Sequence record: PV340577
From: Escherichia phage PhiR70_1
Reading direction: 5' to 3' (one strand)
DNA: 48,757 nt
Positions 16,587 to 18,430 of this stretch are shown here, piece after piece. Position numbers and translations under genes: made by a program. The notes under the pieces were generated by a model that made no database searches, had not been told where the DNA came from, and saw nothing but the letters and a program-made list of their open reading frames with translations. Within the stretch, counting starts at the first letter, position 1. Each line of letters starts with the position of its first letter.

Positions 16587-16619
16587 TACGCCAATTATTT
16601 ACTAAAAGTTATTAAAAAT

Positions 16620-16750
16620 GGGGCGTTGAAACGCCCCCAAAAATAAAGGGTAATATATAACAGAAGGTTTGTATAGTTAGAAGCAAGGTTGTGCTTCTAA
16701 AGGAAGTGGCTTGAGGGAGCCACTTATATGTTGGGGAGGCAAAGCCTCCC
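16620..16750. terminator. Cluster of four GC-rich stem-loops between convergent quuD and nmpC
   Basis: GGGGCGTTGAAACGCCCC (16620-16637), AGAAGCAaggttgTGCTTCT (16679-16698), AGTGGCttgagggaGCCACT (16705-16724), GGGAGGCaaaGCCTCCC (16734-16750); the first is followed by a T-run on the minus strand. Confidence 0.5.
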
Positions 16751-16774
16751 ACAACATATCTTTTAGTAATCAAA

Positions 16775-17857
16775 TTAGAACTGGTAAACCATACCTACAG
16801 CAACGATATCATCGGTAGCAACGCCAGATGCTTTCGTGAAATCGCTCTTATCAATCAGGTTGATTTTGTAGTCAACAAAAGTGGACATATTTTTGTTGAA
16901 GTAATAGGTTGCACCTACATCAACATATTCAACCAGGTCCTGATCACCCCAAACACCCAAGTCTTTTCCTTTAGAATGCAGGTAAGCAACGGATGGACGC
17001 AGGCCGAAGTCGAACTGATATTGTGCAACAGCTTCGAAGTTTTGTGCTTTGTTGGCAATATGGTTATTACCAAAAACAGTCATGTTCTGGGTTTCAGAAT
17101 AGGTGGTGGCCAGATAGATGTTGTTCGCATCATATTTCAGACCAGCTGCCCATACTTCAGCATTTTGACCAGAAGCATTCAGACCGTTGTTACCGTAGAT
17201 AACCTGATTATTAGTGCGATCAGATTTAGCATAGGTTGCACCTACACCGAATCCTTCATACTCATAAGTAGTGGAGAAACCGAAACCATCACCATTAGCT
17301 TCAGTTACGTCAGTGCGGTCATTTTTACCCTGATACTGAGCAGCAAAGTTCAGACCATCAACCAGACCAAAGAAGTCGTTGTTACGATAAGTTGCAACAC
17401 CAGTGGTGCGACCAGTCATGAACACATCTGTCTGGGTCCAGGTATCGCCACCGAATTCTGGCAGAACGTCAGTCCACGCACCGATGTCGTATGCTACACC
17501 GTAGTTACGGCCGTAATCGATTGAGCCGTAGTCACCGAATTTCAGGCCTGCAAATGCAAGACGGGTTTTGTCTTTGGAGGAACCTTGAGATTCAGCGCGG
17601 TTGCCTTTGAATTCATATTCCCACTGACCGAAACCAGTCAGTTGATCGTTGATTTGGGTTTCACCTTTGAAGCCAAGACGGGCATAAGTAGTATCACCAT
17701 CATCTGCATCATTAGAGGAGAAGTAGTGCTTAGCATTAACTTTCCCGTACAGATCCAGCTTGTTACTGTCTTTATTATAAATTTCAGCTGCCTGAGCAGA
17801 CATCGCCATCAGTACTGATGCAGCTACAGCAGAAATTGCCACTGTTAATTTTTTCAT
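16775..17857 (-). CDS. nmpC: Outer-membrane general porin, NmpC/OmpD-like, intact
   Basis: 360 aa; signal peptide [23 protein letters not shown]; OmpC-family motifs and C-terminal ...VGMVYQF. Confidence 0.9.
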
Positions 17858-18285
17858 CGTGAGCCCTTTTTTTTGAACTATTATTAAAAAATGATGTCAC
17901 TGCGCGATAAATATTCATCTAATCAATGTGATTATTTCAAGATGTAAGTTTTGGTTTCTCGTTTGATTTGTGAAGTAGATCTCTATTTTTATCTGAACTT
18001 TTTTCTATCGAATCCTATTCATAGCTCTTGGCTGAATAAAAATAAATCTATTAGCCAATTTATATTAACGGCTGTTATTTATAAGCGCTCTATAATTTGA
18101 AGGTTCAATTTAAATCGGCTAAAAATAACACTGGAAATTATTTGTTGGTTATTTGTTGAGATTTGCTTATGTATTTGTAGTGGTGTTTTCAATACTCGGT
18201 AGCATTCTCGCAAATATCATTTAGTGGTTTACGTACGTAAAAAATTGGTTATGCTGTTAAGAGTGGTTACTTCGTCACACAGCTT

Positions 18286-18320
18286 AAACCCGCCGTCGAG
18301 CGGGTTTTTCCATTTTTTGA
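18286..18320 (+). terminator. Rho-independent terminator upstream of the lysis genes (tR'-like)
   Basis: AAACCCGCcgtcgaGCGGGTTT stem-loop followed by TTTTTCCATTTTTT, about 110 bp upstream of the holin start. Confidence 0.6.
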
Positions 18321-18430
18321 GTCTCGATATTAGCTGATAACCCAATACCTGAGTTATTCACTGACTCCGAGTCTGTTACGTTTCGTAGTATTCCCTCAAT
18401 TTACACCCGCTTTGTCTGCGAGGTGGGGTT

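Follow-up and report, generated by a model that had tools for sequence, protein, structure and literature searches.

The present analysis concerns the interval between quuD, which encodes the late-gene antiterminator Q, and the convergent porin gene nmpC in Escherichia phage PhiR70_1 (sequence record PV340577). The window, by which we mean the whole stretch of DNA analysed, comprises 48,757 nt, and all coordinates are positions within it. The stop codons of the two genes are 188 bp apart (16587-16774), and the cluster of four hairpins between them is, as judged by its position and sequence, the known small RNA IpeX, i.e. the 3' untranslated region (3' UTR) of nmpC. This finding is therefore already known. 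IpeX was reportedly described by Castillo-Keller, Vuong and Misra in 2006 (J Bacteriol 188:576) for the cryptic prophage DLP12 of E. coli K-12 and for phage PA-2. The only element of our analysis that may be new is a predicted pairing between IpeX and the leader of the host porin mRNA ompC.

In the preliminary description of this region, the cluster had been called unusual and larger than a simple bidirectional terminator requires. We found it neither unusual nor just an over-built terminator. When the 188-bp interval alone is considered, 2,510 of the 5,426 complete genomes of E. coli carry it, at a median copy number of one (range 1-4). It corresponds to a named 3' UTR in which only hairpin 1 (hp1; the others are hp2 to hp4) passes a scan for intrinsic terminators.

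Identity and structure of IpeX

According to a supplementary table of PMC8313858, ipeX of E. coli K-12 is located at 574365-574531 on the reverse strand and has a length of 167 nt. The segment extracted from K-12 at these coordinates opens at the nmpC stop codon, holds all four hairpins and closes in the U-tract of hp1. The interval of the window is 95.2% identical to its counterparts in K-12 and phage 434B over 187 nt, and a 231-nt query that extends into the ends of the genes is 95.7% identical to the PA-2 record J02580.1. According to reviews, IpeX is a 167-nt RNA of DLP12 and PA-2 that originates from the porin promoter, lies within the porin transcript and is released by processing. In reviews and other papers it is stated that IpeX lowers OmpC and OmpF, and ompC and ompF are listed as its targets. 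The effect on ompC is independent of Hfq according to one paper, whereas others describe the porin regulation as requiring Hfq.

The likeness to IpeX of DLP12 and PA-2 extends to the site between the stop codon of the porin gene (nmpC or lc) and the terminator preceding quuD, the strand, the sequence identity of about 95%, the hairpins and the linker that connects hp1 and hp2. Only few substitutions separate the K-12 copy from that of the window, and these are found in loops and in the bulge. In K-12, however, IS5 is inserted between ipeX and the porin promoter. Since nmpC is intact in the window, IpeX should here be co-transcribed with the porin. There are also similarities to other small RNAs that derive from 3' UTRs, e.g. 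NarS and MalH: these likewise occupy the 3' end of an mRNA, share their terminator with it and carry an unpaired seed just upstream of this terminator. In contrast to them, IpeX possesses three additional hairpins at its 5' side.

The minimum free energy (MFE) fold of 16587-16774 consists of four hairpins on either strand, and the interval as a whole folds far better than expected by chance (z = -9.11 for the plus strand and -8.69 for the minus strand; none of 200 shuffles folds as well). Of the earlier claim that four GC-rich stem-loops lie within 190 bp, the number of hairpins was borne out for the 188 bp, while the GC-richness applies to part of the stems only: hp1 has a GC content of 72% and the other three hairpins of 38-55%, and only two of the four stems are truly GC-rich.

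The sequence of hp1 is GGGGCGTTTCAACGCCCC (in the longer account GGGGCGUUUCAACGCCCC), followed by ATTTTTAATA (in the longer account AUUUUUAAUA), and on the minus strand this hairpin is the sole match of the terminator scan within 16587-16774. On both strands hp2 and hp3 lack the combination of stem and U-tract that characterizes an intrinsic terminator. Transcription of the porin gene should consequently cross hp4, hp3, hp2 and the linker before it ends at hp1, and the predicted 3' UTR of nmpC should have a length of approximately 165 nt. On the plus strand, hp4 forms a strong bulged stem that is followed by CUUUUAGU with only four U residues and is not reported by the scan. Because of this tail, hp4 might also terminate transcripts that read through from quuD.

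The MFE fold contains in addition a long-range outer helix (16599-16608 with 16761-16770), which we rejected as a conserved structure, since seven of its ten pairs are broken in some variants and not compensated. In the same region, an inverted repeat of 14 nt (93% identity; 16599-16612 and 16756-16769; TTACTAAAAGTTAT and ATATCTTTTAGTAA) flanks the hairpin cluster, and its arms coincide with the tail of hp1 on the minus strand and that of hp4 on the plus strand. As this repeat is not kept as a helix among the variants, it probably represents two similar terminator tails and neither an RNA structure nor transposon ends.

Conservation of the fold was analysed with 30 distinct variants of the interval that were obtained from 172 fetched loci; 21 of them were aligned, with a mean identity of 95%. 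Across the 21 variants, the pairs of the four helices are kept to 97-99% (hp1 99%, hp2 98%, hp3 97%), and the loop of hp1 is variable. Substitutions in hp2 either affect the loop or are compatible with G-U pairing. In hp4 there is one compensatory exchange of C-G to U-A at the top of the stem in E. albertii, and a bulge and a pair are swapped in the Lambda_4C10 group. Variable columns are clearly enriched outside the helices (13 of 78 in the stems versus 11 of 20 in loops or bulges; Fisher p = 0.0009). The linker, which is unpaired, is conserved like the stems, with variation in 7 of its 39 columns.

At an E-value of up to 1, a search of 15500-19500 against Rfam returned only a sub-threshold match to Trp_leader (E 0.76) at the terminator of the late promoter pR', and a family for IpeX does not exist in Rfam. 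Across the genomes that carry the interval, RefSeq has no features beneath the hairpins. Due to the missing Rfam family and RefSeq annotation, a structured RNA that is present in nearly half of the complete E. coli genomes is invisible to standard pipelines. ARAGORN found no tRNA genes in 15500-19500; clusters of tRNA genes are common between Q and the lysis genes in Shiga toxin (Stx) phages.

The late promoter and the porin cassette

The late promoter was expected to lie beyond nmpC and not beside quuD, and the comparison with phage 933W agrees with this: homology to pR' of 933W is found at 18227-18312 and none after quuD. With 18100-18430 as query, the part at 18227-18309 matches about 300 records of Stx phages, in which it directly follows Q. 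The matching sequence of 933W is annotated with pR' (TTTACG-16-TATCAT), the Q utilization site qut and a rho-independent terminator, and the window can be aligned to it base for base, with TAAGAGTGGTTAC being unchanged between the two. The pair TTTACG/TATGCT had been proposed as a weak candidate. By its homology, this candidate is the counterpart of an experimentally supported late promoter, and it is weak only with respect to its consensus score: it is the sole relaxed sigma-70 match (8/12) on the plus strand within 18100-18300. The terminator resembling tR' that had been predicted behind the promoter is also present. It was recovered by the scan at 18286-18312, has its 933W homologue in the first "possible rho-independent terminator" and is the only terminator-like site on the plus strand between nmpC and essD (stem 18286-18307 plus T-run). 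In the four cassette variants compared, i.e. the window, PA-2, K-12 and Lambda_4C10, the stretch 18227-18319 is invariant and the region upstream of it varies.

For the Stx phages Sp5 and Sp15 of strain Sakai, the start of PR' has been mapped by differential RNA sequencing (dRNA-seq), and an RNA 3' end lies 258 nt downstream (Sy et al., PMC7547250). In Sp5 the promoter occupies L005:812-839, and L005:1103 is the last position in the T-run of the second terminator; the start is thereby placed at L005:846, i.e. 7 nt past the -10 element. By the same geometry, transcription in the window is predicted to start at about 18262. The SRRz lysis operon of DLP12 has been reported to be under the control of a Q-type antiterminator. 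The similarities between the window and 933W or Sp5, the source of the StxS RNA (PMC7547250), comprise the Q family, the -35 element, the spacer length, the -10 element, the initially transcribed block and the first terminator hairpin. The two arrangements differ in that the promoter of the Stx phages overlaps the end of Q and is followed by a second terminator 258 nt downstream, whereas the promoter of the window lies 1.64 kb from Q and has only the first terminator.

Three further observations concern this region. The first hairpin of Sp5 with its U7 tract (L005:869-896, approximately +24 to +50) is homologous to the tR'-like terminator of the window, and the second terminator of Sp5 is at L005:1075-1103. 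The second of the CRP sites annotated in the PA-2 record from 1986 maps to 18262-18282 (AGTGGTTACTTCGTCACACAG) and thus to the conserved qut region of pR', which may mean that the feature was misassigned or that CRP binding truly overlaps with the late promoter. Finally, PA-2 and Lambda_4C10 have 17 additional nt, CTGCYTTT(A)TTGCGATA, in the leader between tR' and essD, which are absent from the window (at about 18383/18384) and from K-12 (columns 535-551 of alignment A4).

Q is homologous to that of 933W as far as about codon 120 (at approximately 16562), and the homology resumes at the -35 element (18227). The porin cassette, which is absent from 933W, where Q abuts pR', is therefore delimited at about 16563 and at 18226/7 and has a size of 1.66 kb. 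It contains a new tail of seven codons for Q, IpeX, nmpC and the upstream region of the latter, which is indeed AT-rich, as the preliminary description had stated (29.7% GC for 17858-18227 versus 49.4% for the window). A CRP site annotated in PA-2 maps to approximately 17966-17986 via alignment A4. A candidate nmpC promoter (TTGAAA-18-GAATAT, 17940-17911 on the minus strand) was returned only by a relaxed scan and is of low confidence. In terms of its own promoter region, gene and terminator and its deviant composition, the 1.66-kb stretch is an autonomous unit of lysogenic conversion (a moron). The nmpC cassette of DLP12 and the lc cassette of PA-2 have in common with it the gene, its orientation, the location between Q and lysis genes of the S21 type, and the upstream region with the CRP sites of J02580.1; they do not differ from it in substance.

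Due to the cassette, pR' is located 1,641 bp past the quuD stop codon and not directly 3' of Q. Since Q acts in trans, this separation alters the anatomy of the locus and not its mechanism. We found no homology to IpeX downstream of chromosomal porins of the ompD/ompC-like (NmpC-like) type in 80 loci from Citrobacter, Salmonella (including arizonae), Enterobacter and others; in this search, homologues of the interval were confined to prophage copies of E. coli and E. albertii. The absence of ipeX 3' of chromosomal porin genes indicates that it belongs to the phage cassette.

A perfect inverted repeat of 10 nt (16560-16569 and 16801-16810; GATATCGTTG and CAACGATATC) has one arm near the 3' end of each coding sequence, quuD and nmpC, and it coincides with the end of the Q homology to 933W. 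This repeat could mark the recombination junction of the cassette. As it includes the palindrome GATATC, an origin by chance is plausible, too.

Taken as a whole, the locus very probably represents the late-control junction of a lambdoid prophage of the DLP12/PA-2 type, in which a porin cassette with IpeX is placed between Q and pR'. The cassette would be transcribed against the direction of the phage late genes, starting from its own AT-rich, CRP-associated upstream region. The nmpC mRNA would carry a structured 3' UTR, namely IpeX, that ends at hp1, and hp2 to hp4 would serve as structural elements of the RNA and not as extra terminators. On the opposite strand, hp4 would probably stop read-through from quuD. 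IpeX would lower OmpC and OmpF of the host, and the phage porin would replace them. QuuD would act in trans at pR' and, with a presumed dependence on Q, allow read-through of 18286-18312 into essD, rrrD and rzpD.

Some points weigh against this interpretation of the locus. The ends and the processing of the RNA in the window are carried over from the literature on K-12 and PA-2. The support by covariation is negligible, since there is only one compensatory pair and the observed score was reached by 95 of 500 shuffles; with homologues that share at least 89% identity, covariation can neither prove nor disprove the fold. With regard to late transcription, the pR' RNA of the Stx phages has its mapped 3' end at the second terminator and not at the counterpart of the hairpin at 18286-18312. 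Only the first hairpin precedes essD in the window, and its efficiency as tR' is therefore putative.

It is improbable that the four hairpins are a redundant array of bidirectional terminators that insulates quuD and nmpC from each other and has no function as an RNA. Convergent genes need termination, the minus strand has a canonical terminator in hp1, and hp4 combines a strong stem with a CUUUU tail on the plus strand. However, such an array does not explain why the linker is as conserved as the stems, hp2 and hp3 have a U-tract on neither strand, and the annotated IpeX of 167 nt, for which regulatory activity has been reported, occupies this interval. A late promoter directly 3' of quuD, as in lambda, would imply that transcription reads antisense through nmpC and that 18228-18255 is irrelevant. 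Both lambda and 933W, in which pR' abuts Q, can be cited in favor of it, as can two weak promoter-like matches (8/12, at chance level) at 16570-16598 and 16650-16677 and a loose resemblance of 16596-16612 to the -35 region of pR' in a gapped, AT-rich alignment. Yet we regard this arrangement as very improbable, since a strict scan detected no promoter in the interval between quuD and nmpC, the homology to pR', qut and terminator of 933W is found at 18227-18312, where it is invariant among the variants, and transcription from beside quuD would meet hp4 with its U-tail and subsequently 1.1 kb of antisense porin gene. Hardly credible at all is the notion of a dispersed repeat or mobile element, either of the type of repetitive extragenic palindromes and bacterial interspersed mosaic elements (REP/BIME) or similar to miniature inverted-repeat transposable elements (MITE), that landed between the two genes. 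The 14-nt inverted repeat around the cluster would be in line with it, but this repeat is not kept as a helix in the variants, the interval typically occurs once per genome, and in all 172 fetched loci it lies beside a phage-type nmpC or an IS-disrupted remnant of this gene. The lack of tRNA genes and of a match to an Rfam family does not point to such an element either.

As a genome feature, the locus with its nmpC/lc conversion cassette, IpeX and a late promoter of the 933W type is thus a re-discovery that changes nothing.

Complementarity of the IpeX linker to the ompC leader

The linker of 39 nt (5'-CUAUACAAACCUUCUGUUAUAUAUUACCCUUUAUUUUUG) is unpaired in the MFE fold of the minus strand and nearly invariant, and for this reason it was tested against the leaders of host porin mRNAs. 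Its part at 16670-16640 (minus strand) is complementary to positions -32 to -6 of the ompC leader of K-12, with 24 bp and a predicted energy of -26.4 kcal/mol. The duplex is composed of a 15-bp segment with one G-U pair that spans the Shine-Dalgarno sequence (AACCUUCUGUUAUAU of IpeX with AUAUAACAGAGGGUU of ompC) and of a 9-bp segment (CCUUUAUUU with AAAUAAAGG), which are separated by an internal loop of 5 nt on one side and 1 nt on the other. Within the linker, CUGUUAUAU at 16663-16655 faces positions -21 to -13 of ompC. None of 1000 dinucleotide shuffles reached the energy of the ompC duplex (z = -4.0), and neither did any of 3,840 genomic segments (minimum -24.0 kcal/mol); these background segments were drawn from the window alone, and other loci, among them some with ipeX itself or with orthologues of ompC, were left out. 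For comparison, the 5' seed of MicC yields -26.5 kcal/mol on the same site of ompC.

When full-length IpeX was cofolded with the leaders, all four hairpins were kept, and the free-energy differences (ddG) were -24.0 for ompC, -19.8 for ompF, -10.0 for ompA and -4.3 for the leader of nmpC itself. The ompC duplex is retained at -23.7 kcal/mol or below in all 21 variants. Substitutions in the linker are located outside the duplex or form G-U pairs, with one exception that occurs as a singleton. The duplex region overlaps nt 128-142 of IpeX. A published data set gives these nucleotides as the likely functional region, and IpeX was profiled for accessibility in vivo (INTERFACE) in that study.

There are parallels to the known antisense regulators of the two porins. 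The 5' seed of MicC is represented in the linker with both halves (GUUAUAU...CCUUUAUU), and the predicted target of the linker is the same site of ompC, with the same energy. The intervening AUUACC resembles the segment of MicF that pairs with the Shine-Dalgarno region of ompF. Unlike in MicC and MicF, however, the seed of IpeX is internal and not at the 5' end, it reaches over the Shine-Dalgarno sequence, and it is part of the 3' UTR of an mRNA; there is no overall homology. Besides, even stronger duplexes (-30.8 kcal/mol) are predicted for porin leaders of Dryocola and Buttiauxella (L031, L054, L063 and L083; 50-74 nt upstream of the start of the porin match), which suggests that the linker might target a widely conserved leader motif of the ompC type.

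Mechanistically, the linker duplex would occlude the MicC site together with the Shine-Dalgarno sequence of ompC, a shorter duplex would cover the start region of ompF, and the leader of nmpC would escape. Direct pairing would explain both the reported Hfq-independence of the effect on ompC and the replacement of the host porins. On the basis of the predicted duplexes, we consider the chances evenly balanced that IpeX represses ompC by direct pairing of the linker with the leader, as a MicC-like antisense element within a phage porin mRNA. Two observations count against it: the ompF duplex (-18.8 kcal/mol) was reached by 80 of 1000 shuffles and is not significant on its own, and reviews relay that the discoverers of IpeX saw no complementarity to ompC.

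The latter statement, along with the conclusion in the reviews that regulation does not occur by simple pairing, leads to the other explanation, namely that IpeX represses ompC indirectly and that the complementarity is fortuitous, for instance a relic of a captured fragment of a porin leader. This is possible, if somewhat doubtful. In its favor, AT-rich ribosome-binding regions are of low complexity, and a near-cognate duplex can lack function even at about -20 kcal/mol (PMC1807950). Moreover, ompC is not listed in a target prediction from 2021 for nt 128-142 of IpeX. On the other hand, the duplex is as stable as the one MicC forms at this site and more stable than that of every shuffle and background segment, and it involves the only part of IpeX that is unpaired, invariant and experimentally accessible. 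It also covers the Shine-Dalgarno sequence, and apart from the singleton the variable positions of the linker do not disturb it.

A pairing of IpeX with ompC is not reported in the literature we searched, which did not include the original IpeX paper, so that an earlier notice is possible. If true, the duplex would settle how IpeX acts, which since 2006 has been regarded as independent of pairing, and would provide a simple model of how a prophage swaps OmpC and OmpF of the host for its own porin. Such a porin swap is relevant to superinfection exclusion via porin receptors and to the permeability for antibiotics of the many clinical strains whose cassette is intact.

Gene layout and distribution of the cassette

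The features of the region are compiled in Table 1. Gene identities are based on the list of open reading frames and on profile searches (Pfam, NCBIfam).

Table 1. Coordinates of genes and other sequence features around the porin cassette of the window
Feature	Position	Strand	Remarks
rusA	15618-15980		
ylcG	15977-16117		
quuD, late-gene antiterminator Q of the 933W/H-19B/DLP12 type	16203-16586	+	Pfam PF06530 (Phage_antitermQ), E 8.5e-54
hp1 with U-tract, predicted intrinsic terminator of nmpC/IpeX	16610-16637	-	terminator scan
IpeX, 3' UTR of nmpC, about 167 nt	16611-16777	-	begins at the nmpC stop codon and ends in the U-tract that follows hp1
Hairpin 1 (hp1)	16620-16637	-	-12.5 kcal/mol
Linker of IpeX, 39 nt	16638-16676	-	unpaired, nearly invariant
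Hairpin 2 of IpeX (hp2)	16677-16700	-	-9.7 kcal/mol; 9-bp stem; U-tract on neither strand
Hairpin 3 of IpeX (hp3)	16704-16725	-	-10.4 (-) / -12.4 (+) kcal/mol; 8-9-bp stem; U-tract on neither strand
Hairpin 4 of IpeX (hp4)	16726-16759	-	-22.2 kcal/mol; 15 bp, one bulge
nmpC/lc, phage-borne general porin, 360 aa, intact	16775-17857	-	full-length porin models
AT-rich upstream regulatory region of nmpC	17858-18226	-	29.7% GC (17858-18227)
Putative late promoter pR': -35 TTTACG (18228-18233), 16-nt spacer, -10 TATGCT (18250-18255)	18228-18255	+	homology to 933W pR'
Conserved initially transcribed region	18256-18285	+	includes the counterpart (18269-18276) of "qut" of 933W; putative function
tR'-like intrinsic terminator	18286-18312	+	scan: 8 pairs (stem 18286-18307), then T-run
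essD, S21-type holin, first gene of the presumably Q-dependent lysis cassette	18431-18646	+	Pfam PF04971, E 2e-35
rrrD, lysozyme	18646-19143		

QuuD shares 79% identity with Q of phage 933W, and its relation to the structurally solved Q21 is remote (E 7.6e-8); near-identical genomes in RefSeq carry the label quuD. The product of nmpC matches the OmpC subfamily of NCBIfam with 514.7 bits and Pfam Porin_1 over positions 1-337 of 337, and it is full-length in comparison to the models of OmpC, PhoE and OmpF. The gene is homologous to lc of the PA-2 record J02580.1. These profiles, together with the opposite strands and the stop codons facing each other, corroborate that nmpC is intact and convergent with quuD.

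The PA-2 record contains an ORF1 (CPT_434B_68 in 434B) that starts inside hp4 and runs antisense into the porin gene (16728-16766 on the plus strand of the window; L171:180-389; L001:2129-3537). We rejected it as a gene, since a difference of 1 nt (CTTTTAG in the window versus CTTTTTCG) ends this reading frame after 12 codons in the window, and a real gene is therefore unlikely.

Of the 5,426 complete genomes of E. coli, 2,394 contain the 2.6-kb arrangement at nearly full length, as do 35 phage records, among them PA-2 and 434B/DLP12. DLP12 of K-12 consists in this region of quuD, an nmpC gene interrupted by IS5, and essD. Phage 434B is a recombinant that carries a segment of DLP12, and its nmpC is likewise disrupted by IS5. 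The insertion is the same in K-12 and 434B and lies near the 3' end of nmpC (L004:2592-3786 and L001:2239-3433). In strain JB2, ISKpn26 leaves only the 64 nt of the IpeX interval that are proximal to hp1 (L169:2016-3341). Insertions of the IS5 family have thus affected the nmpC cassette in different contexts, and they uncouple ipeX from the porin gene or delete it.

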